The position numbers were made by a program, and so were the translations under genes. The notes beneath the pieces are model-generated. The model was not told where the DNA came from and made no database searches. It saw only the letters and a program-made list of their open reading frames with translations. Of a stretch of DNA of 64,000 nucleotides, positions 4,896 through 34,557 are shown in pieces. The stretch's first letter is position 1, and every line of letters starts with the position of its first letter. The DNA is taken from the NCBI GenBank assembly GCA_026127935.1, contig JAJSLL010000002.1, positions 30,645 through 94,644 on the forward strand, given 5' to 3'. This DNA comes from Thermoplasmatales archaeon. GTDB taxonomy: Archaea; Thermoplasmatota; Thermoplasmata; Thermoplasmatales; GCA-001856825.

Positions 4896-4896
4896 G

Positions 4897-17058: not shown

Positions 17059-17084
17059 ACATATTTACTTTTCTTCTATACTTT

Positions 17085-17092
17085 TTTATAAA
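17085..17092 (+). promoter_or_regulatory. TATA-like box upstream of the ArsR-type regulator
   Basis: 'TTTATAAA' lies 22-29 nt upstream of the candidate TTG start at 17114. Confidence 0.3.
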
Positions 17093-17113
17093 GATTATTC
17101 ATCCACACTAGCG

Positions 17114-17724: not shown

Positions 17725-17972
17725 TGAGATTCGCTCTATTAATATCGATTTCTAATTTCAAAGGCTCCTCGTTCATAATGTGAAAAGGGAGGTCCTCATA
17801 TTGAATTTACGAGTTTATTCTGGGAATATGATAAGTTAAGGAGAATCAATGGACATTGCATCTAGAAAGGTCTTGATATAGCTCTTTGACTACTTGAAAA
17901 ATGACCACTTATAGTGATCTTCAACACAGTTCCTGATACATTTATAGTTCAAATAAGAATCATCACATTGGA

Positions 17973-18768: not shown

Positions 18769-19130
18769 CCCAACAGTCTAAATCCAACAGTACCACGCTT
18801 AATTTTCTTCAGGGCTCTTTCTACGTTGCTTTCGGAATAATGCCCCTTAAAGTCTATCAGGAACTTTGATCTGCCAGTAGAGTCCCTCGAGGGAATAGAC
18901 TCGATCATTGTCAAATTTATCCCCTCATCCTTAAATACGTTCAGTACCGTTGTTAGCGCGCCGACTCTGTCATCTGTCAAGAACGTGATGGAGCACTTAT
19001 TTCCCTTTCTACGGAGCTTCTCTCTAGAAAGAACGATGAATCTGGTATAATTGTATCTTGAATCCTCAATCTCCTCCTTGAGGACGTTTAATCCATAGAT
19101 ACTGGAGCATGCTTTACTTGCGATGGACAT
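18729..19130 (-). pseudogene. pheA: Prephenate dehydratase remnant (only the end of the PDT domain plus the ACT domain)
   Basis: 'IASKACSSIYGLNVLKEEIEDSRYNYTRFIVL' plus ACT with 'IESIPSRD' (the ESRP-like motif). About 130 N-terminal residues are missing and not recoverable upstream. Confidence 0.7.
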
Positions 19131-19157
19131 ACTAGGGGATATCTCTTACACCAAATG

Positions 19158-19230
19158 TCAGATTCCTGAAGGATTCCCTTGCTAATTTAAGCAAAGCCAT
19201 TAAATCTAATCTTCACTCTTAGATAAAATA
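19158..19230. repeat. Degenerate copy D of the junction repeat
   Basis: 'TCAGATTCC[TGAAGGATTCC]CTTGCTAATTTAAGCAAAGCCATTAAATC' compares with 'GCAGATTCGCTTAATTATTTAAGCGAAGCCTATAAGC'. Confidence 0.35.
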
Positions 19231-19378
19231 GCGCTAGAACTCATAGCAGGTTTTCAAACTCCTCGGCAATTGGTCCTGATTGAGTAATTATTGCTCTGGA
19301 CGTACCCCTTTTCAGTTCTCTATGTAGAGGAACCGTTATTGTTCGGTTTCCTCTCCTTCCCGACGCATAATCATATGG

Positions 19379-19926
19379 CTACCTGTTCAGTGCTTTGACG
19401 ACTTCATAACCAGAGACTACCGGAAATTTAGTCAGTTCCACGGCCATTTTCACTGGTATGGGTTGACCATGTTTCCTAAATCTCTCTATATATATACTGC
19501 TATTGCATTCTTTATGTACTCGATTGTCCCATCTAACACTAATTATTTGATCGACAAATTCTGGACCTCTAGATGGTTCATACCTTACATTGTAGAGCTC
19601 TGGCGCGAATTCGTAGAAATCGTATATCTGCTTTAGCTTCAAGAGGAAACTAGTCGAAATGAGTCGTAGGTCTGGAAATGGGGCGCCATTACTACAATTG
19701 CATCAATCTCACCAACAAGGAATTCGCCGGAGGACTTCACGGCAGCCACGGTTTCTGAGTGGTCATTACCCAAGTTTCCTATGAGTGTAGGAGAGTTTGG
19801 TACGAAGGCCACAGGCTTTATTAGGCCAAAAAATCTGTTTATGCTATTAGTACATTTTGCCGTGAAATTTCTTGCGACCCTTTTGCTAAAAGGAGTAATT
19901 CTGTAGGTAGAGACAATGAGGCTCAT
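19379..19926 (-). pseudogene. Class III extradiol ring-cleavage dioxygenase (LigB / 4,5-DOPA-dioxygenase-like), frameshifted and truncated
   Basis: Two abutting ORFs: '..IDAIVVMAPHFQTYD' and 'YDFYEFAPELYNVRYEPSRGPEFVDQI' (the DFxGFPxxxYxxxYxxxGxPxLA block). The total of ~180 aa compares with ~260 expected. Confidence 0.55.
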
Positions 19927-19997
19927 TTAATCTTGCTCCTCCCGTCTGAGCTCATTGACCGGGATCTTGCAGGCGAGTCATTTTGTTAATCAAGGTC

Positions 19998-21338
19998 TCA
20001 TCCATCATTCCTGGATATTATACTCTGAACGCGGCGAATCATTTCCCTCCTTGGTTTACTCCAAGAATAAACTAACTTCGTCCTTTTCGTCTTCGCATAC
20101 GAGATTTCTTTGCTAACAACTGATCTATATTCCATAGGTTCATGATAATCAAGGGGAATACCCTTCCTTATCTTCTCCCCGACTATCGCGTACGATTCCT
20201 TCCAAGATTTTCCAGATTGAAAGATTGAGAATGCTTCTGCAGTAGAATTTACAGAATTTTCCATTAACTCCATAGCCTTCTTCTCGTCTAGCTTGAATTC
20301 CAGAATGAAGTCTTGATAGTGATTAAGAATTTTTTCTACTAGGATTACATATTTTATGGTTCTATCCTTTGATATTTGGAATTCTCTGTGATAACCAGAT
20401 TGTCTATTCAACAAGATCGTGGCAGTTGAAACCAGATGTCCAATAGCTTCAGATGCATAACCTTGAACCATTTCAAGGAAGTCTGGGTTTCTCTTGTTTG
20501 GCATTAGTGAACTACCCGTAGAAAATCCGGGAGGTAGTATTATGAATGACTCTTTGTCGCCACTAAAACCTATAAAATCCTGTGATATTCTTGATAGAAA
20601 AAGCATTATTTTAATTAGGAACGCTAACACATTAAGATCGTCAAATCCACGGTAAAAGCTTTCAGCCATCGGATTTTGTGGATATGATTTGAAACCCAAA
20701 TTCTTAGCCACAATATTAAAATTTATAGGAGAAAGTGAACCAAAGCCAGACCCATAGCCGAATGGAGAAGTAACTGTAAATTTTTCACACATCTCAAGTG
20801 CATCAAGTGACGTATCTAGGGATACCCTGGATAAATAGTCGAAATAGGTAGAAATTGTTACTGGCATTGCTTGCCGATTGTGTGTATAACCTGGCATTAC
20901 TCCTTTGAAATTTCCCCTTTTGGCATTCATTCGCTCTGAGATTGAGATAAGATACTTTGAAATCTTGAGAAGATGATCGATGTAGAAGGACTTTATATTT
21001 GTGTGGCTCTGCTCATTTCTTGAAAGGAAGATGCGAAGATTCTTGTAAGCATTACCACCTTTTTCCTTCAGGTATTCCTCTACAAACCCGTGCACATCCT
21101 CAAGACGTGGATCTATCTTGATCTTCTTGCCTAGCAAACTAAATAGTCCAGTTAATATCGCATCACTATCCTCTAAGGAAATTTTGGATTCATTTCTAAG
21201 CTGCAAATGGTAGACAAGGAGAGAAATTACTTCGTAGTCAAGAAGCATAGAATCAATTTGTGCGTCATCATCTGTCATTATGTCTGAGAGATCTCTTTGC
21301 CCCTCATCTGAAGCCCCGCCACTCCATATTTTTACCAT
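19998..21338 (-). CDS. argH: Argininosuccinate lyase (divergent)
   Basis: 446 aa with the fumarate-lyase signature 'GSSLMPNKRNPD' and 'MPGYTHNRQAMP'. Lies 4 nt downstream of argG. Confidence 0.85.
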   Translation of the reverse strand: MVKIWSGGASDEGQRDLSDIMTDDDAQIDSMLLDYEVISLLVYHLQLRNESKISLEDSDAILTGLFSLLGKKIKIDPRLEDVHGFVEEYLKEKGGNAYKNLRIFLSRNEQSHTNIKSFYIDHLLKISKYLISISERMNAKRGNFKGVMPGYTHNRQAMPVTISTYFDYLSRVSLDTSLDALEMCEKFTVTSPFGYGSGFGSLSPINFNIVAKNLGFKSYPQNPMAESFYRGFDDLNVLAFLIKIMLFLSRISQDFIGFSGDKESFIILPPGFSTGSSLMPNKRNPDFLEMVQGYASEAIGHLVSTATILLNRQSGYHREFQISKDRTIKYVILVEKILNHYQDFILEFKLDEKKAMELMENSVNSTAEAFSIFQSGKSWKESYAIVGEKIRKGIPLDYHEPMEYRSVVSKEISYAKTKRTKLVYSWSKPRREMIRRVQSIISRNDG

Positions 21339-21342
21339 GGAG

Positions 21343-22560
21343 TCACTCTTTAATGATCATTTCTTCTAAATGTTTCTTTCTCACTTTTCTCGTAGCAATT
21401 GTTTGGCTTCCGAATATGTATATGAAACCTGGGGCTTTGCTCTGATCAAAGGTCTGGTTTTTGCCATATGTAGACACAGACATATCATAAAGAGAATTTG
21501 TGCTTTCTACTCCAACAGGTATAATATTTCCCTTATACAGCTTGAGTTTTACCCTCCCATTTACAGCGGCATTAATACTCTGCTGGAATACCTTTATGTG
21601 ATCCATTAAGGGATCAAACCAAAGTCCACTGTAAACCATTTCAGCAAACTGTTGATCCATGAACTTCTTAAGTTGGCTTTCTCTTTTGCTCAGTACTAAG
21701 GATTCTAGATATCTATGGCCGGTTATAATTGTGACAGCTGCAGGACATTCATAGAATTCGTGACTCTTTATGCCTACAACTCTGTCCTCTATCATATCAA
21801 TCGCTCCTATACCGCTTTGGCCAGCTACATAATTCAATTCTGCAATCAAATCCTTGAGTGGCATTTGCTTTCCATTAAGTTCAACAGGTAGTCCACCCCT
21901 ATAAGTAATTGATAGACCTACCGGCTTATCGACTGATTTCTCAACAGGTAGGACCCACTTATACGCATCTTCTGGAACTCCTTCGTTTATGAACTCAATG
22001 TCTGATCCTTCAACTGACCTCCCCCACAAGTTCTCGTCGACTGAGTATTTCCCCCCATTGGGTACTTCTATATTCTTCAATTTGGCATACTCTATTTCCT
22101 CGTCCCTGTTCATGTTCATTTCTCTCACGGGTGCGATTATAGTAAGATCCTCATTCAGTGCCTTTATAGAAACTTCAAATCTGACCTGGTCGTTTCCCTT
22201 TCCCGTTGAACCATGCGCGATAATATTGCAATCGTTCTGTTCCGCAAATTTCACCGCTTCCATAGACATTAGAGGTCTAGCTAGACTTGTAGAAAGAGGG
22301 TATTTATCAAGATAAAGCCCATCGTTCAGTATCCCCTGTGCTACGAACTCTTCAGAAAACTTATCCTTAACGTCTTCCGTAATTGTCTTTATCGCTCCGA
22401 GTTTCTTTGCCTTCGCTGCTATGCGTTGGAGGTCATTTTTCTCCTGACCAACATCAAGAGTCAAAGTCAGCACATCAAAATTCTGCTGCTCCTGCAACCA
22501 TTTTATCATCACGGATGTGTCTAAACCCCCCGAATACAGCAGAAGTACTTTTTCCTTCAT
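21343..22560 (-). CDS. argG: Argininosuccinate synthase
   Basis: 'LLYSGGLDTSV', 'IAHGSTGKGNDQVRFE', 'YSVDENLWGRS'. Confidence 0.95.
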   Translation of the reverse strand: MKEKVLLLYSGGLDTSVMIKWLQEQQNFDVLTLTLDVGQEKNDLQRIAAKAKKLGAIKTITEDVKDKFSEEFVAQGILNDGLYLDKYPLSTSLARPLMSMEAVKFAEQNDCNIIAHGSTGKGNDQVRFEVSIKALNEDLTIIAPVREMNMNRDEEIEYAKLKNIEVPNGGKYSVDENLWGRSVEGSDIEFINEGVPEDAYKWVLPVEKSVDKPVGLSITYRGGLPVELNGKQMPLKDLIAELNYVAGQSGIGAIDMIEDRVVGIKSHEFYECPAAVTIITGHRYLESLVLSKRESQLKKFMDQQFAEMVYSGLWFDPLMDHIKVFQQSINAAVNGRVKLKLYKGNIIPVGVESTNSLYDMSVSTYGKNQTFDQSKAPGFIYIFGSQTIATRKVRKKHLEEMIIKE

Positions 22561-22646
22561 ATACCACGATTTACCATTAATATATTAGATTAGTTAAAAA
22601 ATTCGGTATTTTAGATATTCTTATTATCAATTTGGAGTACAAAATG

Positions 22647-22656
22647 TTAAAATATA
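22647..22656 (+). promoter_or_regulatory. TATA-like box for the ACT-domain gene
   Basis: 'TTAAAATATA' ends 19 nt before the ATG at 22675. Confidence 0.3.
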
Positions 22657-22674
22657 CACGGAGTATGTATTTTT

Positions 22675-23271
22675 ATGAAAGATTTCGAAGAGACCAAGTA
22701 TACTGTTGAAAACAAGGTTGCTCGGTTCCTCAGAGAAAACCCAGATTATATGCTTTCAATGAAAGTTGGGATAATTAACGTTAGTAAATTAGCACAGCTT
22801 ATATTAAAAGAAAACGAAGATCTGAATCCAATATCTGTAAGAGCTGCGCTAAATAGGTTCAAGGGTAGGTTGGACGAAGAAACCGGGAAAACCAAGGCAG
22901 ACGATCTTCTAAAGAAAAGTAGAATTTCTTTGCAAGACAGGATTTGCGTAGTCACATCGAAAACTCCCCAAAATATGAAATATATATCCGCAACCCACCT
23001 TCATGACAGCATCGTCTATATTGTAGACGAAATTGAAAGCAAAATACCACCCACCACAGTGAATATCATGGTCGACAGAGATGTTAGTTTGATTCACATA
23101 TTCTCTTCAAAGGAAATAGAGAAGACACCGGGATTTGTAATGCGTATAACTCATAAACTCTACGCAAGAGGTATCAATATCCTTCAACTTATCTCATGTT
23201 CCAACGAAACGATACTTATATTGAACAAGAAAGATTCCACTCTCGCTTACGAAATTTTGACATCGGAATAA
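22675..23271 (+). CDS. ACT-domain protein with an N-terminal HTH-like region (putative amino-acid-responsive regulator)
   Basis: 198 aa. C-terminal ACT: 'VSLIHIFSSKEIEKTPGFVMRITHKLYARGINILQLISCSNETILIL'. Divergent from argG. Confidence 0.55.
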   Translation: MKDFEETKYTVENKVARFLRENPDYMLSMKVGIINVSKLAQLILKENEDLNPISVRAALNRFKGRLDEETGKTKADDLLKKSRISLQDRICVVTSKTPQNMKYISATHLHDSIVYIVDEIESKIPPTTVNIMVDRDVSLIHIFSSKEIEKTPGFVMRITHKLYARGINILQLISCSNETILILNKKDSTLAYEILTSE

Positions 23272-24094
23272 CCATGCCACCTTTTCCAAAGTAAATTATG
23301 GATTTAATTGAGCTTGAATTGTTTTGGCGGCTTCGGAGTTTTTTGAGGAGGACTTAATTATAGTATTTGTATAGCTGAAATCCAGACATGTATATACTGA
23401 ATTGTATTTCAGAATATGATGAGTCTTCTGTCTGGCATAATATTTGGAATCAGGTTGGAGGGCTTCTCTCCCTTTGATCGAACAAGATTCAACAAGAAGG
23501 TCCTTGGATATACAGATAAATCCCAGATCGGTAAATACTCATATTCATGATCCGGCTTCATGTCGGATGTACCGCACGTTCATCTCTCTAATTCCATCTT
23601 CATCATACTGGAAGAGAACCTTGACAGGGTGAAGGGTTTCTGCGAAACGTTCATGGTAGATCTGTCTTTGAGAAAGGTCATTCTCACAGCATCAGACCTG
23701 GAGGTTCTGCTATGAACAGCGATGAGTATATCATGCACTTGGAAAGCACTGTTGCCCAACTCACAGCGGAGACATTATCATTAAGGACTGAGAACGAAGA
23801 TCTGAAGAGGCGTCTCATTCTCTATGAGAATCCTCATACACCGCAGTCAAAACAGATGTTCAGACCCTGAGACGACAATACCCATGGGAAAGAGTGGTGC
23901 ACCATCTGGTCACAAGGGTGTAACTCGTATTCTTGACAAGCCTGATGAGATTATTCACCTGTCAATCGAGAAGAAGATAATATCCGCATCCCTCCGCCAC
24001 AGAAGATAAGGGTAACCGAATACGATCTTGAAGTCTATAGAGACAGCAACTGCGGGATGTGTGTGAAATCAAAGCACATGGACTGCCCTCAGGG

Positions 24095-24294
24095 AAGGAA
24101 AATGGGCATATACCTTCTCAATTACATCACAATGCTGAAATACAATCTTCGTTTGAAAAATGGTAAATGTGAAGAATTGAATGGGACGGTTTCGCTTAAT
24201 CTATTAATCGAATCTATTTCGGATTCATCATATCGTGCTTTGTCAGCGTGGAAAATACAGGTCCGAAAAGTCACAATAGCCCCGGGCAGATTCG
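24095..24294. repeat. Direct repeat copy 1 (homologous to 31040-31244); its last 18 nt equal the 3' end of tRNA-Gln
   Basis: ~80% identity over about 150-200 bp. 24273-24294 'ACAATAGCCCCGGGCAGATTCG' is identical to 31223-31244. Confidence 0.85.
24191..24212. repeat. 22-nt palindromic motif (degenerate copy)
   Basis: 'TTCGCTTAA-TCTA-TTAATCGAA'. Confidence 0.6.
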
Positions 24295-25290
24295 CTTAAT
24301 TATTTAAGCGAAGCCTATAAGCAAACCTCTCATTTCTTTATGCGTCGCAACAAGTTTTCTTATCAAATAGTTTCCAATATTTCTTTTGGCAAATAAATAA
24401 AGAAGAGTGCTGCTATCTTCTCCTCAAGCGTCATAGCGCCACGAATCAATTGTAACAGATTCCTGGTACAGAAAACTTAGGTCTGCTAAACACAAACGGA
24501 GCCATGTACAAGTATGGAATAGATGAATAAGAAAGTAAAGTAAGCTGCAAGGATTGCAGTAAAGGAGTACTTTGAAATTTAATGAGAACAGAAACGAATG
24601 TATTTCTTGAGTAACATAGCGGTCTGAGGAATGGATTCTATGAGAGGAGCATAAAGATCAAGCTGGGAGAGACAGACAGTATTAACGTGCCACGAGACAG
24701 AGAAGTTTTGTTCAAGACTGGAGTATTCAAGCTTTATAGCAGGTCCGTTGGAGAAGACTAGCTAGTAATATCCCTCTACTCTAAGGGGATATCCACAAGA
24801 AAAGGTTCTGAAATACTTAAAACAATATTCTAGAACAGACACTCAACGTTATCCATAACACGCATCACTGATGCCACAATGGAGGAGGTGAAGAGATTCC
24901 AGTTAAGGCCTCTTAATTATAGATACATGGCCTCATTTTTGGATGCATTGCCCTTCTTTCTTAGAAGGGATGCAGTTGAAAAGGAGCCAGTGATGTTTGG
25001 AATGTTAGTTGAGGAAACGGAGGAATGCGAGGTGCTGGGATTCTATATAGCCTCAAAGGAATCGCACAACTCATACGTGGATGTGATCAACGACCTCTAT
25101 GAAAGGGGAGTGAGCGATTTCATTTATAGCTGATGGAATACTAAAACTTAAGGGGAAATAAGGGAGATATTCCCAGTGGCGGACTTGCAGTTGTGTACCA
25201 TCCACGCATCAAGAAACTTCTAAACAGAAGCGAGCAAGCCTGCACCCCAACCATGCGCGGCTACGGGGAAGTCGGATTATCGAGGGATGA
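24286..25290 (+). mobile_element. IS256/Mutator-family transposase pseudogene (multiple stops and frameshifts, 3' part missing)
   Basis: Blocks are found across three frames: 'RNGFYERSIKIKLGETDSINVPRDREVLFKTGVFKLYSRS', 'SLYSKGISTRKGSEILKTIF*', 'RPLNYRYMASFLDALPFFLRRD..VLGFYIASKESHNSYVDVINDLYERGVSD' and 'IREIFPVADLQLCTIHASRNF*'. Confidence 0.75.
24291..24312. repeat. 22-nt palindromic motif (perfect 9-4-9)
   Basis: 'TTCGCTTAA-TTAT-TTAAGCGAA' followed by GCC, exactly 100 bp from the copy at 24191. Confidence 0.8.
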
Positions 25291-25294
25291 AGTA

Positions 25295-25972
25295 TTACGT
25301 CCTCTGGGCACCGAGATTTTTTTCGAGTTCACCCCTCAGGAGGATAAGAAAAACTCCCGTGATTATCAAGCCAAATATTATCCCCATTACCCCCCACATT
25401 ATGGTGTCTTCCCGGTAAGCCTCCTGATACCGTCTCTGCTTCACCATATTATAAATTTTCCACGTCTTCAGGAATACGAATATCCCTATCACCATTACTA
25501 CAAGATATATGAAAATGGCAACATAGGCGCCTGCAATGGCTCCGGAATAAAGGTAAGAATAGGAAGGCCCCAGGGAAGCAGCATACGCGCTTAGGGAAAG
25601 GAGTGAAATTACGGAATAGATCGTTTCAATAAAGAAAACAAGCACAGATATGCCGGAGAATATTAGCGCCATCAGTATAGTATTGTCCACAGAAAGAAAT
25701 TCAGAGAACTGCTGTCTCGGAATTGAGCCGTAGGGAGGCGGATAATTCCCCTGAGGAGGATTGGACTGCGGAGGATTCTGACCCGATTGCATTCCTGGCT
25801 GCTGAATGTTATTAGGGGACTGCGGGGGTGTCTGAACCTGCTGATACGTGCCTGTTGGAACACTCTGCTGCTGCCGAGGTGGAACGCTCTCCATAGGCAG
25901 CGGGCTTCCACACTGTTTACAGAAAACAGCATCATCTTCGTTGGGTGCTCCGCACTTCGTGCAGTATTTCAT
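25295..25972 (-). CDS. Zinc-ribbon membrane protein (N-terminal zinc ribbon, P/Q-rich linker, 4 TM)
   Basis: 'CTKCGAPNEDDAVFCKQCGSP', then a ~60-aa Pro/Gln-rich low-complexity stretch, then four hydrophobic helices. Confidence 0.7.
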   Translation of the reverse strand: MKYCTKCGAPNEDDAVFCKQCGSPLPMESVPPRQQQSVPTGTYQQVQTPPQSPNNIQQPGMQSGQNPPQSNPPQGNYPPPYGSIPRQQFSEFLSVDNTILMALIFSGISVLVFFIETIYSVISLLSLSAYAASLGPSYSYLYSGAIAGAYVAIFIYLVVMVIGIFVFLKTWKIYNMVKQRRYQEAYREDTIMWGVMGIIFGLIITGVFLILLRGELEKNLGAQRT

Positions 25973-26262
25973 TGTCTTACTCTCCCTGAATGACCAAAAA
26001 TAGTATTTGGGTTCAGCTATTTAACTTTTATACGTGATTCCGACTATTATGGCAAAACTGACCTTTTTCACCGAGCCTGAAGAAACAAGAAATATTCACC
26101 CATCTAAAAACATCATTCACACTCCAATCAAAAGCACTAAGTCTCATGTTAAAGAATGAAACCTCACAGAAGCATGGACTATTAGAAAGTAGAAGGCTAA
26201 GTTTTCAATGTTCGAACTACTGTTAGCACGCCGAAATTATTGTCATCACAGCATTGTCCCTC

Positions 26263-27651
26263 TCATCTCAGGCTTCTTATGATCGTATTGACATTGTTGT
26301 TCAGATAACTGACTTCCTCATGCTTCAGGGTCGTTCCTCCCGGCGAACCCCGTCCCATAAAGCCGAACAGTACGAGACTTCCGGAAGCATCAGTCCCATT
26401 GGGCCTTACCTGGTCAGCGACGTCAATTTCAATTTTGCCTGGACGCCAAAAAGTCGAGGGGAATGCGTTTATTTTTCTGATACTTCTAAGCTCTACCGAG
26501 AATGAGCCCGGATTGCGGAGCGTGTCATTTATCTCGCTTTCATCCACTTTTGTTGTAGTCTTTGAAAGGAGTCCCCACGTAAGCGGGCCTCCGAGCAATG
26601 CCGTAGCAGCGGTACCCCCCCTGCCTCTCGATAAAAACATGAATCTTCTGTCCGTTATAACAACTGAACCAGAATGGGGAGGGATACTTACCCTCTTTCT
26701 GTCTATTGTCGCAAGGTTTGCGCCGGGATGAATAAAGAGAATTGTTTCGTTGCCTCCTCCAGAATCCGAAACAGGAGGAACTGCAGGGGAAGACCAAACT
26801 CCCGGCTGCCCACCCTGTGAATTCGAAAAGTTTTGCTGTTCACTACGGCTTAAAAATTCTGAGCCTGTTCTTGGCTGAAAGGAAGAGGTCGGAGGCTGCT
26901 GGAGGTCTGGTTGAGTACCTTGGAAGACGGGAGGCATACCCACAGAAGCTGCAGGGCTGACATTTGGCGCAGGGAACGCGAGGGTTTTCCTCAAACCAAA
27001 AAAGGTCAGGAAATACGCTATTGCCCAGAGTATTAAGAACAGGGCTACGAATCCATCGAGGTTGTGTGCAACAGATGAGAAAACACCTAAGTTAGAAAAT
27101 GTCACTGGTTGGTAGTAAAGTCCGTTGAGAGTGTTCATCGATGAATAAATTCCCAGTGAAACAACAAGAAACGATATTATGTAAAATACCCACAAAACAA
27201 TCCTCCCTTTCCTGGGGAATACCGAATATACCGCTAGAAATAGGGAGGCGTCTATAATTACGTATACAAAGGATATAAAGAAGAGAAAAGGATCTGTATA
27301 TTTTACGATTGTAGAGTAGGAGATCGATGTTGCGGATGAAATTATTGCGATTAGCGAGTTGTATCTGAGCACACTGGTCAGCCCCACTCCTGTAGCGACA
27401 ATAAATAGAATCATCGAAATTATGCTCATCCTTCTGTGAAGCTTTGAGATTTCCGATGATCCCAGGACCAAGATAACAAGCCCGACGAGTATGAGGAGAC
27501 TCAGGAAATCTCCCACACTTGGAATCGCAGTGAGGATCAGCCCAATGGCAATCAGCAGTATGCCAGTTCGCGTCCTGCTCTTCTTCCTTCCTCCCGGGTA
27601 GCCTCCATAAGGATAAGGCTGATTCCCTTGGCTAAGGCTCATTCCCTTCAC
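26263..27651 (-). CDS. Polytopic membrane protein with a Pro-rich linker and a C-terminal PH/GRAM-like soluble domain
   Basis: 462 aa. The N-terminal ~210 aa hold 6-7 TM segments. A 'PPVFQGTQPDLQQPPTSSFQP' linker follows. The C-terminus 'VVITDRRFMFLSRG...' is PH-like by pattern only. Confidence 0.55.
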   Translation of the reverse strand: MKGMSLSQGNQPYPYGGYPGGRKKSRTRTGILLIAIGLILTAIPSVGDFLSLLILVGLVILVLGSSEISKLHRRMSIISMILFIVATGVGLTSVLRYNSLIAIISSATSISYSTIVKYTDPFLFFISFVYVIIDASLFLAVYSVFPRKGRIVLWVFYIISFLVVSLGIYSSMNTLNGLYYQPVTFSNLGVFSSVAHNLDGFVALFLILWAIAYFLTFFGLRKTLAFPAPNVSPAASVGMPPVFQGTQPDLQQPPTSSFQPRTGSEFLSRSEQQNFSNSQGGQPGVWSSPAVPPVSDSGGGNETILFIHPGANLATIDRKRVSIPPHSGSVVITDRRFMFLSRGRGGTAATALLGGPLTWGLLSKTTTKVDESEINDTLRNPGSFSVELRSIRKINAFPSTFWRPGKIEIDVADQVRPNGTDASGSLVLFGFMGRGSPGGTTLKHEEVSYLNNNVNTIIRSLR

Positions 27652-29407
27652 CTCTTCTTAACATAATTATAGCTAACGTGAGAACAACAAACAGCACAAA
27701 CGAAAATGCAATTTCCATGACAGGTGAGTAATATGGAGACATACCCGCTGGGCTCACGAAGGAAAAAGTGACCAGAACGGAGACATTTCTGCCAGACACT
27801 GAGACCTTACCGATAGCTTGCGAAATGCGATAGCCTGTTATATTTGCTACGCTAAACGTATAGGTACCATTTCCTTCCTTCAAAATTATAGAATCATTGG
27901 AAGATGACTCGGAGACTCCGTTGACGCTTATTTCCCACGATGCTCCGGGTGGGAGACCTGTCTCCCTGAATGTTATAGTATAGGACTTGAACGTGATTAA
28001 GACCGTCAGGTTGTTTCCATTAACGTTGACGGTTCCGTTCTGGGGGGAGGGTGTGAAACCATTTACCGAAGGAACGGAGTAGGGGTAGTTTCCATCATAC
28101 ACAGAGAATGTGATGTTGCTATAGGGAGAAGATTGAACATTCCCATTCAAGTTCACTGACCAAAGAGTGCCTGATGGCAACCCCACTTCTACAAAGGATA
28201 CGCTGTACTTTTCAGCTGTGAAAGAAATACTATCTGTAACGTTTTCACTATTCACGTTTATCACGCCTGTTGATGGCGTAGAGATATACCCCGTTAGCTT
28301 GCCGACCTCAAAATCATATTTACCATTAACCTCACTGAAAGTCAGTGTGGTATTGCTGGAATCCTCTGTTAGGCCACCAAGCGTAATGTACCAGACTGTG
28401 CCGGTGGGGAGTCCCGATTCAATAAACGTAACACTGTAATGTACCAGCGTAAATGTTACACTCTCTTCTATATTACCTCCGTTAACTGTAAATGAACCGG
28501 AAGAAGGAAAGGCGCTATAAACAGTATTAGAACTCACCGAATAGTAGTAAGTGCCGTTATATGCCTGAAATGATATCGTCGAAGTGGTGGAACTATAGGA
28601 GAGACCATTACTCAAATTCACGTACCACGTGCTCCCGCTCGGGAGGCCGGACTCCGAGAACGTCACGTTGTATTCCCGAGCAGATACTTGTGAGAAAACG
28701 TAGACTACTGCACCCACGGATGAAGCGTACGAATCCCCGGGGCCAGTTGCATAATTTACTGTGAAACTGTACTGTCCGCTGTTAACGAACGCAGAAGCTA
28801 TAACAATCCCAGCGTATGAGCCGGCATTCCCGTAAGTGCCGCGTGTAAAAGCATCGTACGTGAAGGGAGCATTAGAAGTTACTGATCCGTTGTAGCTGTT
28901 AGATGCCGCTGACACGATAACTACCAAGGAACCATTGTACTGGACACTGAAAGTTCCGGTCGTTGAATTTGCACCTGTACTGTCATTGAAAAAAGTATAG
29001 TTCTCGTAAATTAAGCTGGTGACCCTTGCGCCACCAATGGCATAATAGGCCCCAGCAGTCGAAAAATTTCCTGTATTGTTCGACGAATGACCTATAGCGA
29101 TCACCGGGCCTGTTATGTATGGATTTGAATCCGACACGAAGAGATCGGTAATGTATGACTCACTGGAGATCGGTTGCCCCCCTCCCGTCACAGCGGCATA
29201 CAGGTATACGGCACCGCCTGGGCTTAGCGTCAACGAATTTGACTGAGACTCAGCATACGCCGTGACGGATGTCGACAGGCTACTCGAATCAAGGTAGCCA
29301 GGCTTTGAAGAATTTTGGATCTGTGCATGCACTACAACCGTGGCCGCAGATGAAATTGCTAGCGCAAGAATAAGAGTAGTGACGACTAACGCACGGAACT
29401 CTTTCAT
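27632..29407 (-). CDS. Secreted, C-terminally TM-anchored surface protein with four tandem ~76-aa 'Y-x-V-T-F-x-E-x-G-L-P' repeats
   Basis: Signal peptide 'ALAISSAATVVVHA'. Repeats (nt 27758-28672) begin 'YNVTFSESGLPSGSTWYVNL', 'YSVTFIESGLPTGTVWYITL', 'YSVSFVEVGLPSGTLWSVNL' and 'YTITFRETGLPPGASWEISV', a repeat type seen in the C-terminal regions of archaeal thermopsin-family and surface proteins. Dense N-glycosylation sequons and a C-terminal TM segment. Confidence 0.65.
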   Translation of the reverse strand: MKEFRALVVTTLILALAISSAATVVVHAQIQNSSKPGYLDSSSLSTSVTAYAESQSNSLTLSPGGAVYLYAAVTGGGQPISSESYITDLFVSDSNPYITGPVIAIGHSSNNTGNFSTAGAYYAIGGARVTSLIYENYTFFNDSTGANSTTGTFSVQYNGSLVVIVSAASNSYNGSVTSNAPFTYDAFTRGTYGNAGSYAGIVIASAFVNSGQYSFTVNYATGPGDSYASSVGAVVYVFSQVSAREYNVTFSESGLPSGSTWYVNLSNGLSYSSTTSTISFQAYNGTYYYSVSSNTVYSAFPSSGSFTVNGGNIEESVTFTLVHYSVTFIESGLPTGTVWYITLGGLTEDSSNTTLTFSEVNGKYDFEVGKLTGYISTPSTGVINVNSENVTDSISFTAEKYSVSFVEVGLPSGTLWSVNLNGNVQSSPYSNITFSVYDGNYPYSVPSVNGFTPSPQNGTVNVNGNNLTVLITFKSYTITFRETGLPPGASWEISVNGVSESSSNDSIILKEGNGTYTFSVANITGYRISQAIGKVSVSGRNVSVLVTFSFVSPAGMSPYYSPVMEIAFSFVLFVVLTLAIIMLRRGEGNEP

Positions 29408-29599
29408 TTAAATAGTAATGGTAAAACCCATATTAGATTGTTCTGGATTCTTCAGTATCCTTAAAAATTTTAATAAAACAAAATTTCCCTGAATGGTACA
29501 ACACTTCTCCATAAATACCAAATACTCAAAAATAGAATAATCTATGATGAAAAGGATTTCTGATTTTGCAAATATAAAAAATAAGGCCAGGACACAAAA

Positions 29600-30589
29600 T
29601 CAGGGAGGGACAAACGTCGCGATGAACACGATGTTGCCCTCGAAAGATATTTCGAATGCCCACTGGCTTCCTATGATATTCTGATTGGGCGCTCCAGAAA
29701 AGGATAGAGAATAGTTGAAGGAATCCCTGCCGCCGAAAGAAGTGTCATTAACAGTGCTGAAGTTTAGATGCTGACCAAGCACCTCGGCGGAAGAAGGGAA
29801 GTTCGATACCACCAGCGCTGGACTGGAGAATGTTGTTACATTGTAAGAGGACATAACGCTATAATCTGTTAGGTTCACGACAGAGAACACAAAGGGCAGG
29901 TTTATGTGACCAGTATTAACAGTCTTGTTGGCTGTGGTGAAATGAAGGACAGAAGTGTTATTTGAAAAGGTCGTCCACCAGTTTCCGGATATTGACATCC
30001 CGTCGATGTAGTTTGTGTCCCCTATAACCCCAGTCAATTCACCGCTATGACCCGCTGAACTTATACCCATCCCAACCCCTACCCATCCCATCAGCCCGAA
30101 TGGTGCAGGATTCAAGATGATAGTATTTCCTGAAAAACTTACGTTAGCGTAGACCACATCAAGCTGAGTTCCAGTAGAGATAGACCCACTGGGAGAAGGA
30201 AGTGGAAAAAGCGCAACAAACATATCACCCGTACTGGCAGAAGATGAAGCCCAGAAGTAGTTTAATGAGACGGATTCTGATATTCCGCTCCCCTCGGGAT
30301 AGTGCATTACGTAGCTCCCTTTATAGGCGTTCATTGGAGTTTCGTTTAGGTACAGGGCCAGATTATCTATGCTCGCTGACGTAGGGCTGGTCATTATCAG
30401 AGAAAGATATGCCATTGCAATTGTGTTGTTTGTACTGCCTATACGATATGTGGGCACTACTGCGCCAGTTAAAATGCCGTTAATTATTGCGCTTTTGCCC
30501 TCGCCCATATAATGCATTGCAATCCCAGTTAAGGCAATAGCGCCAACCACTACAACGATTATGATTATAATAACAAAAACCCCCCTCAT
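29600..30589 (-). CDS. Signal-anchored extracellular protein, unknown family
   Basis: 329 aa with an N-terminal TM 'VFVIIIIIVVVVGAIALTGIA', Ser/Thr/Asn-rich composition and sequons. Confidence 0.5.
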   Translation of the reverse strand: MRGVFVIIIIIVVVVGAIALTGIAMHYMGEGKSAIINGILTGAVVPTYRIGSTNNTIAMAYLSLIMTSPTSASIDNLALYLNETPMNAYKGSYVMHYPEGSGISESVSLNYFWASSSASTGDMFVALFPLPSPSGSISTGTQLDVVYANVSFSGNTIILNPAPFGLMGWVGVGMGISSAGHSGELTGVIGDTNYIDGMSISGNWWTTFSNNTSVLHFTTANKTVNTGHINLPFVFSVVNLTDYSVMSSYNVTTFSSPALVVSNFPSSAEVLGQHLNFSTVNDTSFGGRDSFNYSLSFSGAPNQNIIGSQWAFEISFEGNIVFIATFVPP

Positions 30590-31039
30590 CGTTTAAAGCC
30601 ATTGGAGTTGCATTATTAATATATTGCGGTTTGTCTACTCCCTCTGGGCCCCATAATGAGTGTTCAGTATCATCCACCTTTTTCCAGCAATACTATGCAT
30701 TGCTTAATGCCACTGGAAGGAGAAGTTAGAAGAAAAGAACATTTACCAGATGTCTTTTGCCGCACGCTTTTACTTGTTGTGTCATTGGTCAATGATTTGT
30801 GTTGCTCTAAATGGCCTGATGGTATGAACGTTCTCTGTTCGTTACGGGAAATCGCCGGGGAAAGCCCTGAATTGAGAAACTGAATATTGTACTTAACAAA
30901 CACCTGCGGGAAAGAGACTGACAGGAGTCTTGAGATTATGGAGTCTGCGTGTTTCGTAAAGATCCGGTTCTCTCATATGTCTTTAGTTATATACAAGCTT
31001 AAGGGAGGAGGAAAAGATCTACTGATGAAGCCGTCTGAA

Positions 31040-31244
31040 ATAAACCTCAATTTTTTAGAGGAAAGTAATATACGGCCACAATGCGCTAAGACAGAATCTT
31101 CGTTTGAAAAATGGTAAATGTGAAGAATTGAATAAGACGGCTTCGCTTAAACATTTAAGCGAATATTTTTGGGTTCATCACATCGTGCTTCGTCACCTTG
31201 TATAATACGGCTCCGTAAAATTACAATAGCCCCGGGCAGATTCG
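31040..31244. repeat. Direct repeat copy 2 (homologous to 24095-24294), running into the 3' end of the intact tRNA-Gln
   Basis: Contains the decayed IS66-like coding remnant '..NLRLKNGKCEELNKTASL..'. The offset to copy 1 is 6950-6951 bp. Confidence 0.85.
31142..31163. repeat. 22-nt palindromic motif (perfect 9-4-9)
   Basis: 'TTCGCTTAA-ACAT-TTAAGCGAA' preceded by GGC. Confidence 0.8.
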
Positions 31245-31299
31245 AACTGCCGTCGTCGGATTCAAAGTCCGAAATGCTTGTCCACTACACCACGGGGCT
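31227..31299 (-). tRNA. tRNA-Gln (UUG), no encoded CCA
   Basis: The reverse complement folds as a cloverleaf: acceptor AGCCCCG/CGGGGCT, anticodon stem TCGGA/TCCGA with loop CTTTGAA, T-arm GGCAG-TTCGAAT-CTGCC, discriminator A. Confidence 0.9.
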
Positions 31300-31330: not shown

Positions 31331-32566
31331 CTATCCTGATTTATAACTGAGAAACTCCTTTCCAAGAAGCTCTCTGGCTATTATCAGTTTCATTATGTTT
31401 ATACCGCCTTCCGCTCCTACATAGTACGACATTACACCGCCCTGTGCTGCACCGAGCGGAAGATCCTTTGTATATGCCATCGCTCCATGCCATACCATCA
31501 CTTTTGTAATAATCTCGTGTGCGGTCGGAGGCCCGGTCATCTTTGCAAGCGATACGGCAAGATTCTGCTCAGAAAGCGGCACCTTCTCTTTGTTCTTGTA
31601 TACTCTATCCAATATCCATGAAGCTTTCTGCGTTAGCAGTCTTGAAGATTCCAGTTTACCGTAGAGTTCTGATAGTTCAAACTGCAACCCCTCCTGCTTC
31701 CCCAGGGGCTGGTCAAAAAGCATCTTCGACTTCAGATGCTCCCTCCCCATGTCCAGAGCTTCTAGCGCGGCACCATTGCATGCTGCTGCAACGTATATCC
31801 TTGCGATATTGAACCCTTCCATTATTATGCGGAATCCCTGTCCGATCTCCCCCACCCTGTACTTATCATCCAAATCCAAATTGTTAAAAGAAAAACCACC
31901 GGTTGACAGGCCTTCCCTCGCAATATTATTGAAAACGGTAGTTGATATTTCGCTGTTCAGTTTTCCGTCAGTGCCCTTGATCATGAATGCAAATGTAGTG
32001 AATGCCTTTGACCCAGCATTCTTATCTCCTGTTCTTAAAAGCGTAAGGAAGCCGCCTCCGCCTGAGAGATTAAGTGCTTCCCTAACTCCACTGATATATA
32101 CCTTTTCTCCAGATACTGACCAACCATTCCCCCTTCTCACGGCATTTGATTTCTCGTTCATCACGTCAGAGCCGCCCGATGGTTCAGTCGATCCTATTCC
32201 CATGAACGTCCTTCCTTTAACTATGGAAGGAAGCATTTCTTCCTTGATCTCCTCTGATCCATATTTTTCAAGCATTGCAGGCCATCCGTTCAAAAGAAGC
32301 ACGTAGACTGGGAGAGCCATGGATACATCCCCCCTAGCTAATTCCTCAACAATTGCAGCCATTTGAGAAATTGAGCCGCCTGCTCCCCCGTATTTCTCAG
32401 ATACGGTGAATCCGATAAAACCTGCATCGGCCGCCTTTTGAATTATATCTTCTGGAATATTGTTGGTGTAGGAAATCTTGTCTCTCTTAGGAATCACATA
32501 TTTCTGGACGAACTCCTTCGCATTTTCCCTTATAAGTCGATCTTCTTCTGAGGTGCCAAAGTCCAT
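31331..32566 (-). CDS. Acyl-CoA dehydrogenase family protein
   Basis: 411 aa with 'GSTEPSGGSD', 'YISG' and 'MVWHGAMAYTKDLPLG'. Confidence 0.85.
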   Translation of the reverse strand: MDFGTSEEDRLIRENAKEFVQKYVIPKRDKISYTNNIPEDIIQKAADAGFIGFTVSEKYGGAGGSISQMAAIVEELARGDVSMALPVYVLLLNGWPAMLEKYGSEEIKEEMLPSIVKGRTFMGIGSTEPSGGSDVMNEKSNAVRRGNGWSVSGEKVYISGVREALNLSGGGGFLTLLRTGDKNAGSKAFTTFAFMIKGTDGKLNSEISTTVFNNIAREGLSTGGFSFNNLDLDDKYRVGEIGQGFRIIMEGFNIARIYVAAACNGAALEALDMGREHLKSKMLFDQPLGKQEGLQFELSELYGKLESSRLLTQKASWILDRVYKNKEKVPLSEQNLAVSLAKMTGPPTAHEIITKVMVWHGAMAYTKDLPLGAAQGGVMSYYVGAEGGINIMKLIIARELLGKEFLSYKSG

Positions 32567-33483: not shown

Positions 33484-33705
33484 TAAAGAATTACATCGTT
33501 GGGTATCTTTTATCGTGCACGTACACGTGCATCCCAACTTATACTAACTCTAGTTCTTGAATGCATGGAAACGGCAATTTTCCTCCATATTATGCCCTAA
33601 ATGCCTTAATTCTTGGAATGAAACCTCAATTTTTTTGGCACCGCGAAATCAAAACTGTACAGTAATGCGCAAGAAGTTAAATTCAGAAGAAACATTTGCC
33701 CCAAT

Positions 33706-33790
33706 GCGGGGGTTGCCGAGCCAGGTTAAAGGTACCAGACTTAAGATCTGGTTCCGTAGGGATTCGGGGGTTCAAATCCCCTCCCCCGCA
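33706..33790 (+). tRNA. tRNA-Leu (UAA), long variable arm, no encoded CCA
   Basis: Acceptor GCGGGGG/CCCCCGC, anticodon stem CCAGA/TCTGG with loop CTTAAGA, variable arm 'TTCCGTAGGGATTC', T-arm GGGGG-TTCAAAT-CCCCT. Confidence 0.9.
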
Positions 33791-34024
33791 TAGCAAATAA
33801 GGTCTAATACGTCACCATCGTTCCACTCTCTTTATTCAAAGGGTATATAAAGAAACATTAAAAATGATTAATTATATATTATTAACACTCTCATGACTTT
33901 ACATGGATGCCTCTTAAGGATGTCAAGATATAATATTCGAGTTTTAATCTGGAATAACTGTGATTATACATAGCGTCATAACTTATTTTGTATACTTCAA
34001 ATACAACTATACATTATTTTAATT

Positions 34025-34557
34025 ATGAGGAAGCTCACAATTTCAGATGATAAGAAGAAAGAAATAATAGAAGAGATAAGACGCAGCGACGAATCAAAGT
34101 ACGATCACAGGTTGCATGGAATACTCCTCGTTGCCAACGGTATGAGCCCTTACAGCGTATCCAAGGTCATAGGGAACAGCCCCAGGAGCATAGAGAATTG
34201 GACCAACCTGTTCCTGACGCATGGCTTCAACAGACTGAGGGAGTCAAGTAGGTCAGGCAGACCCCCAAGGCTATCGAGCGTTTGAAAAACATATCGGATG
34301 ACGTGAGGAAGAATCCCATTGACCTGGATTATTCTCAGAACCTATGGGACGGGAAGCTGCTCAGCCACCATCTCGCCATGAAGTACGACATAGCTCTGGG
34401 AACGAGGCAGTGCCAGAGGGTATTCAGGAAGCTCAAATTCAGGCTGAGGAAACGGAGACCGAAGATAGCGAAGGGAGACGATGACAGAGGAATAAACCTC
34501 CATGTTGAAGGGGGTGGGCCCGGCACTGTATCGAAGGTTCATCATAAGATAGCTTAA
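34025..34557 (+). mobile_element. IS630-family transposase remnant (HTH N-terminus only, -1 frameshift at ~34282, DDE domain absent)
   Basis: '..ANGMSPYSVSKVIGNSPRSIENWTNLFLTHGFNRLRESSRSGRPPRLS' followed by '..DLDYSQNLWDGKLLSHHLAMKYDIALGTRQCQRVFRKLKFRLRKRRP'. Confidence 0.7.

Follow-up and report, generated by a model that had tools for sequence, protein, structure and literature searches.

Integrative elements and genomic islands of the tyrosine-integrase type occupy tRNA 3' ends, and in archaea both tandem and integrase-less ones are described, with integrase loss or absence documented for integrated archaeal elements (PMC8371274; PMC6563490). Cis-mobilizable elements (CIMEs) and accretion-mobilization are known from streptococcal integrative and conjugative elements, ICEs (IME review, PMC5704250). 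In archaeal integrases of the SSV type ('suicidal') attP lies within the integrase gene, which integration therefore splits in two (PMC7253208, PMC8371274), and dif sites have an 11-6-11 geometry of 28 bp (PMC8371274, PMC5357621).

The locus compared here lies in a 64 kb window, the whole stretch of DNA that was analyzed, from an uncultured Thermoplasmatales archaeon. As in tRNA 3'-end islands, one side is bounded by an intact tRNA and the other by a partial 3' copy in the same orientation, the block of identity runs from the T-loop to beyond the 3' end, presence/absence polymorphism has its junction inside the repeat, and blocks are stacked in tandem at one tRNA. Unlike those islands, no integrase or integrase fragment was found in seven different blocks seen beside tRNA-Gln, the cargo is cellular, without replication, virion or conjugation genes, and two conserved palindromes of 28 bp are present in the att arms. 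The likeness to CIMEs lies in att-bounded segments without recombination and transfer genes, in tandem arrays as formed by successive site-specific integrations, and in segments that would be movable only if a related element supplied the integrase; the host here, however, is an archaeon, and no helper element was found. The best reading is that the blocks are decayed or cis-mobilizable elements. SSV-type integration shares the tRNA 3'-half target and, in the left copy here, an open reading frame through the att core, but this frame is a truncated IS66 transposase pseudogene with non-homologous read-through, it has no recombinase domain, it is not kept in the other copy, and there is no int(C) fragment at the other junction. 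IMEX (Xer/dif) elements and integron attC cassettes likewise have no recombinase of their own, insert serially with the newest nearest the site, and use recombination sites with dyad symmetry; the palindromes here even have the geometry of dif. However, they match only 3/11 arm positions of Pyrococcus abyssi dif (PMC2958812), the crossover lies beside the palindrome and not within the spacer, there is no linked IntI or Xer gene, and the blocks are multi-gene units of 5–7 kb.

The tRNA-Gln gene and its partial copies

The target and the sites related to it are:

31227–31299, minus strand: intact tRNA-Gln(UUG), the integration target (ARAGORN and Rfam)
31223–31244, no strand: right core copy, attL-type, 22 nt (repeat and L001 comparison)
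24273–24294, no strand: left core copy, attR-type, 22 nt (repeat and L001 comparison)
31077–31222, no strand: X(B) arm, trailer-like, imported with block B; palindrome GGCTTCGCTTAAACATTTAAGCGAATAT at 31139–31166
24128–24272, no strand: X(A) arm, older trailer; 28-bp palindrome at 24188–24215
24288–24419, no strand: Y arm of block B; palindrome AGATTCGCTTAATTATTTAAGCGAAGCC at 24288–24315 plus a 104-nt extension
12810–12977, no strand: copy 3, distal (oldest) attR-type junction; core, Y' palindrome and Y' extension

An earlier note, made from the window alone, had placed an intact tRNA-Gln(UUG) on the minus strand, and both programs agree; the sequence of this gene does not differ among the related alleles compared (6/6). 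The same note had described a direct repeat containing the tRNA 3' end, which blastn within the window recovers at 24128–24294 and 31077–31244 (83% over 169 nt, E 7e-45), with weaker similarity continuing back to ~24110/31060. The longest identical run is 39 nt (24143–24181). The other is the 22-mer ACAATAGCCCCGGGCAGATTCG, the core, whose final 18 nt correspond, as reverse complement, to the tRNA-Gln 3' end, so that the duplication of the terminal 18 nt claimed before is real and is held within a 22-nt block common to both copies. In the right core, the final 18 nt of the tRNA, from T-loop to discriminator, occupy 31227–31244, and the first 4 nt of its trailer occupy 31223–31226; the left core is a partial 3' end from which the tRNA 5' part is missing. 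Past the junction the copies diverge much as had been described: copy 2 continues into the tRNA T-arm, copy 1 into the palindrome at 24288–24315, which overlaps the end of the left core, and then into an IS256-family pseudogene.

Copy 3 did not figure in the earlier note. It is 74–81% identical to 24253–24419, including the 104-nt extension; its tRNA-like core (12835–12852) matches 16/18 nt, its Y' palindrome occupies 12846–12873, and it lies just downstream of an aldo-keto reductase gene (11914–12729). A decayed core remnant is present at this position in the related contigs L029 and L039, persisting even at the ~71% nucleotide identity of L039.

Four copies of the 28-bp palindrome are present in the window (at 12846, 24188, 24288 and 31139), compared with 0.03 expected by chance. 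The X(B) and Y palindromes are 92% complementary to each other, and the palindromes are kept across genomes only ~71% identical, which together suggests protein-binding sites; X and Y would be the sites bound by the recombinase. The complete X-core-Y unit is very rare, with 2 matches in 185,579 species genomes and 0 viral matches.

A variable array of blocks

The segment bracketed by the repeat, block B, is not a stand-alone island but the tRNA-proximal unit of an 18.4-kb, three-block, att-bounded array (12853–31244):

12853–17727, no strand: block C, the sole block by tRNA-Gln in L029-type strains; genes for an NfeD-like protein, a 113-aa protein, an MFS transporter, a 380-aa secreted protein, an ArsR-type regulator and a DUF8036 protein
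17728–24294 (17728–24272 short of the left core copy), no strand: block A, missing in L029-type strains
17973–18768: tyrA-like gene of block A, frameshifted
18729–19130: pheA C-terminal fragment of block A
19998–21338: argH of block A
21343–22560: argG of block A
22675–23271: ACT-domain gene of block A
23356–24152, plus strand: IS66-family 5' remnant, part of block A and not of the core (DNA homology to intact relatives)
24295–31244 (equivalently 24273–31222), no strand: block B, 6,950 bp, absent from L001
24505–25230, plus strand: IS256-family transposase pseudogene (domain match 24879–25133)
25295–25972, minus strand: cargo gene, 225 aa, N-terminal zinc ribbon, predicted membrane spans
26263–27651, minus strand: cargo gene, 462 aa, predicted polytopic membrane protein, no family match
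27632–29407, minus strand: cargo gene, 591 aa, secreted, no family match
29600–30589, minus strand: cargo gene, 329 aa, N-terminal anchor

The 7-kb, tRNA-linked accessory segment proposed earlier is a real and strain-variable insertion, but belongs to a stack of at least three blocks, of which it is the youngest. The right part of block A also holds X(A), beside the IS66 remnant.

L001, a metagenomic contig belonging to a strain of ~98% identity, supplies the empty tRNA-Gln site named beforehand as a test: it lacks precisely the 6,950-bp segment bracketed by the repeats. This contig matches the window at 33477–31077 (98.0%) and 24294–22555 (98.6%), has a single repeat copy, is of copy-1 type at all distinguishing positions up to 24272, and then runs into tRNA-Gln, which X(A) here adjoins. 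The crossover between the two alleles thus falls inside the 22-nt block and L001 is the empty-site allele, this being the one filled/empty pair that can place the crossover. The repeat copies are 83% identical to each other, against 98% between the strains; the repeat is therefore not a fresh duplication, and the right copy arrived with the insert.

Intermediate alleles are also found. Block C follows tRNA-Gln directly, with window positions 17721–31184 missing, in no fewer than 24 contigs, which come from many samples, and in four MAGs, at about 95% identity, and the graded states 0 (L038) and 1 (L001) are both present in sample ERZ27237452. Other relatives carry four further unrelated blocks at tRNA-Gln. 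In L039 and L041 the tRNA is followed by an Nramp block in place of block C, in L040, which shares 99.3% identity with L039 as far as the tRNA, by a phosphodiesterase block, and in L042 by a thrC-thrB-aro block; L041 shares its ACAD protein with L042. The tRNA-Gln gene is a hot spot with different blocks in different relatives, and the uniform arrangement that the earlier note had set against its own reading is not what the relatives show. In L003, an X-core-Y unit precedes the left edge of block A.

The trailer moves with the block: each block supplies its own ~95 nt following tRNA-Gln, and this trailer is only ~80% conserved between strains 95–99% identical elsewhere. On the far side, the palindrome directly abuts CGAATCTGCCCGGGGCTA in three independent filled/empty pairs, copy 3 being a fourth palindrome/core junction:

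Pair 1: window copy 1 and L001
Pair 2: L003 and L042, 84% colinear up to L003 4909
Pair 3: L004 and L040, 87.5% from L004 55

Within block B, the IS256-family match (24879–25133; Pfam Transposase_mut 1.3e-10, NCBIfam IS256 4e-14) falls in a frame that stop codons break up and that is cut short at the 3' end, the outer limits of the pseudogene being taken from three-frame translation. The four envelope or secreted protein genes noted before are present, all on the minus strand, and encode cell-envelope proteins with no assigned function. The 591-aa protein has a signal peptide, internal repeats and a C-terminal anchor, and the 329-aa protein has only three homologues in 5.8 billion proteins. 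In the k-mer and GC check suggested earlier, the cargo forms the most deviant tetranucleotide windows of the 64 kb (z about 2.5); the GC shift of block B is modest (0.454 compared with about 0.43). No integrase domain was found on the block B reading frames with Pfam, NCBIfam or PHROGs, as the note had said, and PF00589 is absent among called genes within 10 kb of tRNA-Gln at 14 related loci.

Probable recombination at the core and its alternatives

The explanation that we consider probable, if far from certain, is conservative recombination at the tRNA T-loop/3'-end att core by a recombinase acting in trans, by which the integrase-less block B was inserted into tRNA-Gln. The incoming DNA would carry an attP-like unit of about 128 bp, made up of the 28-bp palindrome X, trailer sequence of about 72 nt, the core from the tRNA 3' end, and a second palindrome of 28 bp, Y, which is inverted. 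Recombination with the chromosomal gene within the 22-bp core (T-loop to discriminator base plus 4 nt) would rebuild an intact tRNA joined to the element's trailer X(B), and would move the old tRNA 3' end, together with its former trailer X(A), to the far side, where it is abutted by Y. Repeating the reaction would stack blocks C, A and B with the newest by tRNA-Gln, leaving the oldest displaced end beside the aldo-keto reductase gene. The blocks presumably pass through a circular form, and the enzyme would be site-specific, probably of the tyrosine type, and encoded elsewhere (helper element or host); this enzymatic step is one we infer outright. The L001 empty site and the crossover in tRNA-derived sequence strongly support the earlier claim of an att configuration around an integrase-less segment, moved in trans or through its repeats, and block B appears to be immobilised, or mobilizable only in trans, as a CIME would be.

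Several observations count against this explanation. No recombinase was found anywhere, and no circular form was seen. The crossover can be placed in a single filled/empty pair, the window and L001, and a homologous crossover would by chance fall in the terminal 22-nt identical block perhaps 10–30% of the time, although a longer identical run of 39 nt is present. The X-core-Y unit expected at the C/A boundary (17721–17727) is missing, so that an extra deletion must be assumed. The blocks hold ordinary cellular genes (argG, argH, thrBC, transporters) and not plasmid or virus genes, a distant homologue of the 329-aa gene has a plain chromosomal context, the GC deviation of block B is modest, and the proposed check of the cargo for plasmid or virus matches found none in phage or plasmid collections.

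The main rival, possible but rather unlikely, is homologous recombination only: a circle with a diverged tRNA-Gln trailer and 3' end would enter by a single Campbell-type crossover, and L001 could equally have lost the segment by crossover between the repeats. No dedicated site-specific recombinase would operate today, and the Y palindrome would stem from one ancient integration, persisting only by abutting the core. The repeats are long enough (about 167 nt, 83%, identical runs of 39 and 22 nt), no integrase lies anywhere near, the cargo is cellular in character, and integrase-independent excision from tandem elements has been discussed for archaea (PMC8371274). In addition, X(A) and X(B) have the junction with the IS66 fragment in common, which makes them sister copies of one sequence, as expected if arrays re-excise blocks. 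However, homologous recombination cannot make the first partial-tRNA/palindrome junction, and at all four junctions, whose flanks are unrelated, the palindrome exactly abuts the core. Nor does neutral inheritance predict both the X/Y complementarity and its conservation at about 71% identity. The crossover also lies at the extreme end of the homology and not in the longest identical run.

Alternatively, a resident integrase may recombine tRNA-Gln with scattered X-core-Y units, translocating or inverting chromosomal blocks, so that block A (arg/tyr/phe genes) and the thrC block would be relocated core DNA and not imports. The pTN3 integrase of Thermococcales, which flips chromosomes at tRNA-related sites, is a precedent (PMC5495485), core biosynthetic genes are among the blocks by tRNA-Gln, and the X-core-Y unit of L003 lies between thrC and the tyrA block in apparently ordinary chromosome. 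We nevertheless regard this as improbable: the block B genes are nearly unique to this strain group, block B is simply missing from L001 and L029-type strains and turns up at no other place on the contigs seen, the tyrA and pheA copies of block A are pseudogenes, which fits a redundant import, and the X-core-Y unit is very rarely met in the species genomes.

An IS artefact, either a segmental IS duplication or a transposon bounded by the 28-bp inverted repeats 24288–24315 and 31139–31166, is suggested by the IS66 and IS256 remnants adjoining the left repeat and by palindromes complementary like terminal inverted repeats, but is very improbable, since IS66 homology stops at 24152 and IS66 has unlike terminal repeats, L001 sets the indel boundaries within the core and not at the palindromes, a transposon would need a 78-nt 'target duplication' 20% diverged between strains 98% alike, and, with 2 genome and 0 viral matches, the unit is no multicopy MITE (miniature inverted-repeat transposable element).

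The IS66 remnant beside the left repeat

The earlier note had seen the 3' part of an IS66-like transposase gene in both repeat copies, with a frame running through the tRNA-derived core. The part named and its presence in both copies are wrong. By comparison with intact relatives the remnant is a 5' part, with the left inverted repeat at ~23350–23379 followed by a transposase pseudogene (23712–24152) of ~163 N-terminal codons (zf-IS66 region), frameshifted. It flanks the left copy, reaching at most about 25 nt into the repeat, and no IS66 coding sequence is detectable in copy 2; positions 24153–24296 score −0.4 bits against the IS66 profile. The terminal repeats of IS66 (TTTGTACTTGTATAGCTA) bear no relation to the 28-bp palindrome. 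In copy 2 the frame is broken by a 1-nt indel and stop codons, and the reading frame through the core, considered as a split recombinase gene, was rejected as a truncated pseudogene with accidental read-through.

The direct repeat at tRNA-Gln and its empty site

The att-like feature that the earlier note had described at tRNA-Gln is real. A blastn comparison of the window with itself returns a direct repeat of 83% identity over 169 nt (E 7e-45), and the tRNA is called by both ARAGORN and Rfam:

31227-31299, minus strand: intact tRNA-Gln(UUG)
24128-24294: left repeat (copy 1)
31077-31244: right repeat (copy 2)

Both copies close with the identical 22-mer ACAATAGCCCCGGGCAGATTCG (24273-24294 and 31223-31244), here called the core, whose final 18 nt correspond to the stretch of the tRNA between T-loop and discriminator base. 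Rightward of the core, copy 2 runs into the tRNA and copy 1 into a 28-bp palindrome and then an IS256-family pseudogene. The segment thus has an intact tRNA on one side, while on the other the 3' part of that tRNA recurs as a direct repeat. This is the arrangement that marks a tRNA-integrated island, and the main interpretation of the note, a tRNA-linked, att-bounded accessory segment, holds.

The note had also proposed a search for an empty tRNA-Gln site in a relative, and one was found. L001, a metagenome contig of 3,974 nt, encodes the neighbouring acyl-CoA dehydrogenase (window 31331-32566) with identity at every residue. It aligns at 98.0% to window 33477-31077 and at 98.6% to 24294-22555, with the repeat in single copy. 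Across the repeat it carries the copy-1 variant at all distinguishing positions up to 24272 and then continues as tRNA, so that exactly the 6,950 bp between the cores are absent from a close relative and the crossover falls inside the 22-nt core. The divergence between the repeat copies is 17%, that between the window and L001 strains only 2%; the right-hand copy therefore came with the insert and not by duplication.

In the inserted DNA, block B, four genes on the minus strand encode membrane or secreted proteins, none of which has a Pfam (a zinc ribbon apart), NCBIfam or PHROG assignment. The 329-aa cargo protein has three homologues only, the distant one lying among housekeeping genes, and neither it nor the aldo-keto reductase (AKR) encoded further left has an exact-protein record. 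The plasmid or virus matches that the note suggested looking for did not appear when block B nucleotides were compared with phage and plasmid collections. The cargo holds the most deviant tetranucleotide windows in the window, if mildly so (z ~2.5), and the difference in GC is small (0.454 against ~0.43).

Blocks and allelic states

Leftward of block B the window holds two further blocks and a third copy of the core, and all three copies lie in the same direct orientation:

12810-12977: copy 3, core plus palindrome, just downstream of the AKR gene, matching copy 1 over the core and 125 nt rightward
12853-17727: block C
17728-24294: block A
24295-31244: block B
17973-18768, minus strand: tyrA-like (prephenate dehydrogenase) gene in block A, split into four consecutive ORFs
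18729-19130, minus strand: pheA in block A, with the PDT C-terminal end and the ACT domain left

The arms on either side of the core, the trailer arm X and the arm Y opposite to it, each with a palindrome, are common to blocks C, A and B. At least 24 long contigs, drawn from many samples and four MAGs, encode a dehydrogenase (P0019) that is 99% identical. On all of these contigs the gene at window 17437-17724 lies within ~320 nt after tRNA-Gln and window 17721-31184 is absent, the loci of this type being contigs L029-L038. Taken together, copy 3, L001 and these block-C-only contigs define three allelic states: block C only (12853-17727; state 0), block A adjoining the tRNA (L001; state 1), and blocks C, A and B (the window; state 2). 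The tRNA-proximal position is always held by the newest block, and one sample, ERZ27237452, holds both state 0 and state 1. The locus therefore shows, at population resolution, gene blocks accumulating one after another at a single tRNA gene of an uncultured archaeal lineage related to acidophiles, with three nested allelic states present in public metagenomes.

At the C/A boundary (17721-17727) an X-core-Y unit would be expected but is missing. The boundary falls right at the stop codon of a 95-aa gene and is followed by a degenerate palindrome-like sequence, GATTCGCTCTATTAATATCGATTTCT (17721-17760), which also starts the homologous block in L003 (5066-5095). In L029-type strains the Y arm of copy 3 is shorter by 83-89 nt, the 28-bp palindrome being among the missing sequence (window 12856-12938 against L029 16435-16440); the core and the distal arm sequence are retained, so that the old att scar shows a small indel polymorphism.

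Block A includes argG and argH, which look intact, beside the decayed tyrA and pheA copies. Given the broken tyrA-like gene and the pheA fragment, the block seems to be a decaying, possibly redundant biosynthetic copy. The X arms of blocks A and B share even the junction with an IS66 fragment, so the arm of block B descends from an A-like arm, an ancestry that would be expected if blocks leave arrays by renewed excision and are then inserted again.

Across the window and its relatives, this one tRNA-Gln site is occupied by at least seven different blocks. They include an Nramp block (L039/L041), which still reaches to the AKR gene and has a decayed remnant of the core there, a phosphodiesterase block (L040) and thrC-thrB-aro genes (L042). 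Up to the tRNA, L039 and L040 share 99.3% identity, and beyond the trailer they are unrelated; L041 and L042 encode the same dehydrogenase protein. The opposite side of the tRNA-Gln/dehydrogenase pair also differs among close relatives (L029-L038 versus L030/L036 versus L039 versus L041, 1-9000, upstream of the dehydrogenase): depending on the contig it holds radical-SAM/CMD genes, a run of unannotated ORFs or CoA-metabolism genes, and on another contig a SMODS/Cap17-like (CBASS-type defence) cluster with an IS630 element.

The junction unit and the probable mode of integration

The junctions recur between relatives. L003 and L042 align without a break (84%) over thrB-thrC and the trailer as far as the final base of the core, beyond which L003 has a palindrome and then a homologue of the left edge of block A (window 17728 onward); L004 and L040 stand in the same filled/empty relation (87.5%). 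In three independent filled/empty pairs (copy 1/L001, L003/L042 and L004/L040) the 28-bp palindrome abuts CGAATCTGCCCGGGGCTA, and copy 3 provides a fourth palindrome/core junction of the same type. The tRNA sequence is identical in 6/6 alleles compared. The ~95-nt trailer is homologous in all six as well, with a conservation of only ~80% between genomes that are 95-99% identical elsewhere, so the trailer moves with the incoming block; it has no conserved structure and no Rfam match, so a structured RNA was rejected.

From these junctions we infer an attP-like unit of ~128 bp, consisting of the X palindrome, ~72 nt, the core and the Y palindrome, the two palindromes being inverted copies of each other (82-92% complementary). 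Units of this form were met within chromosomal contigs only (L003, L004 and copy 1 of the window), and no excised circle was seen. They are rare, with 2 matches in 185,579 species genomes, a few palindrome-only matches in metagenomes and none in the viral-contig scans, and the unit is thus not a multicopy repeat. Copy number and indel boundaries rule it out as a MITE or an IS200/IS605-type palindrome element.

Judged from sequence, the anatomy is that of conservative site-specific integration at the T-loop/3' part of a tRNA gene, several times over. Tandem integration and integrase-less integrated copies are known for archaeal and bacterial integrative elements (PMC8371274); what is unusual here is that seven blocks are all integrase-less and that their cargo is ordinary cellular DNA. 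The note saw no integrase in the segment, and the wider search agrees: there is no recombinase domain in the block B ORFs (Pfam, NCBIfam, PHROGs), no PF00589 within 10 kb of tRNA-Gln in 14 loci, no integrase or integrase fragment in 7/7 different tRNA-proximal blocks, and no helper element carrying the unit, the viral-contig scans being empty. The lack of an integrase in seven blocks, together with the cellular cargo, favours a recombinase supplied in trans. The blocks are probably att-bounded, CIME-like (cis-mobilizable) segments that use such an enzyme, with the palindromes as candidate binding sites.

A much bolder proposal, to which we give only a small chance, is that the cassettes of a trans-acting system dock at tRNA-Gln in this Thermoplasmata clade. 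The gene for the recombinase would lie elsewhere, in the host or in a rare helper, and the enzyme would recognise the ~128-bp unit, in which two dif-shaped 28-bp palindromes flank a mimic of the tRNA 3' end; any DNA between two units, biosynthetic genes included, would be excised as a circle, and the circle would re-insert at the tRNA-Gln of another cell. If so, Archaea would have a counterpart to integron cassettes or IMEX elements, one in which multi-gene chromosomal blocks are shuffled among strains.

The main rival to a recombinase acting in trans is recombination by homology only, between the long trailer-plus-core repeats. This accounts for the missing integrase, but it leaves unexplained the origin of the partial-tRNA/palindrome junctions, their exact reproducibility and the conservation of the palindromes. 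A second rival is that a resident integrase does no more than exchange chromosomal blocks between tRNA-Gln and att-like units dispersed on the chromosome, a behaviour reported from Thermococcales (PMC5495485). Explanations of the segment by insertion sequences conflict with the positions of the indel boundaries and with the real ends of IS66.

Compared with known tRNA-integrated elements, the locus has the att repeat and the empty site but lacks an element-encoded integrase beside the att site. There is a likeness to CIMEs: block B is likewise att-flanked without recombination and transfer modules, and blocks C, A and B match the tandem accretion of related att-bounded units. Elements of the SSV type with a suicidal integrase leave int(N)/int(C) fragments at their att sites, whereas none is found here at 24295 or 31222. 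Integrons have IntI beside attI and single-gene cassettes between attC sites, whereas here no integrase lies on either side of tRNA-Gln and each block holds several genes; the likeness of the dyad-symmetric units to attC is no more than general. The palindrome has the geometry of dif, but its sequence is unlike that of P. abyssi dif, the sole archaeal dif compared (PMC2958812).

The kind of integration is known; a trans-acting mechanism is potentially interesting. Because all blocks lack an integrase yet share the same conserved att architecture, the locus is a place to seek a trans-acting archaeal recombination system, and it allows a test of whether housekeeping genes are exchanged between strains by site-specific or by homologous recombination.

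Insertion-sequence remnants and other partial matches

The note had placed the 3' part of an IS66-like gene in both repeat copies, with its frame running through the core. The pseudogene is instead the 5' part of an IS66-family element in the left flank of copy 1. Its relatives carry zf-IS66 and DDE_Tnp_IS66 domains; the remnant itself has the left inverted repeat and an N-terminal region 45-64% identical to PF13005/PF03050 proteins, and lacks the DDE domain and the right end. It is evidently a remnant, a non-functional family member. DNA homology to a related copy in L009 (83%) begins with the left terminal repeat at 23356 and stops exactly at 24152. The ~140 nt after that point, into and through the core, score -0.4 bits against the IS66 profile, and copy 2 holds at most ~25 nt of IS66-derived sequence; the frame that crosses the core in copy 1 is broken there by a 1-nt indel and by stop codons. 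The ORF at 24057-24299 is thus read-through of a truncated pseudogene and not an att-containing gene, and an SSV-type split recombinase gene was rejected on the same grounds. For annotation, the ORF through the core is no gene, and 24277-24294 and 12835-12852, each a partial copy of tRNA-Gln, are scars of att sites.

The palindromes are not IS66 terminal repeats, as the real ends taken from L005-L007 are of the TTTGTACTTGTATAGCTA type. A transposon or MITE bounded by the 28-bp palindromes was rejected since the indel edges lie in the core and there is no short target duplication. Nor is the Y arm an IS256 left end: the IS256 coding remnant begins at ~24505, and copy 3 has the arm without IS256. 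Just upstream of the 225-aa cargo gene, window 25973-26011 (minus strand) encodes the 11 residues KYYFWSFRESK, which resemble the KYWLWSFRSAE motif of IS66 transposases and were matched by three IS66 queries; the match is too short and weak to be called an IS66 remnant.

Pieces of the unit also turn up in other contexts. L004 has a second Y-side palindrome copy (4655-4945) with the same 30-nt outer flank, joined to what looks by eye to be the C-terminal remnant of an IS5-like transposase rather than to a tRNA-like core. The peat metagenome contigs L025-L028 share only ~30 nt, in the palindrome region. There (e.g. L028 1946-2040) the same 26-28-bp palindrome, ATTCGCTTAA..AAGCGAAGCC, is followed by TAT and lies ~25 nt from a sequence that looks like a reverse-complemented tRNA 3' end including CCA, at which ARAGORN and Rfam call no tRNA. 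Palindrome matches in L023 and L024 look like chance. The predicted viral contig L044 (IMG/VR UViG 3300035696_000233, 1-1400) starts with a tRNA-like 3' half, with the T-arm/acceptor sequence of this tRNA-Gln, followed by a 315-aa ORF. It was rejected as a viral carrier, having the bare tRNA half only and belonging to an unrelated organism with no nucleotide match to the window or related loci.

The window contains another insertion-sequence remnant that adjoins a tRNA gene. Just downstream of tRNA-Leu(UAA) (33705-33791), two short ORFs at 34025-34557 with HTH_23, HTH_29, HTH_32 and HTH_33 matches represent the N-terminal part, with no DDE part seen, of an IS630-like transposase.
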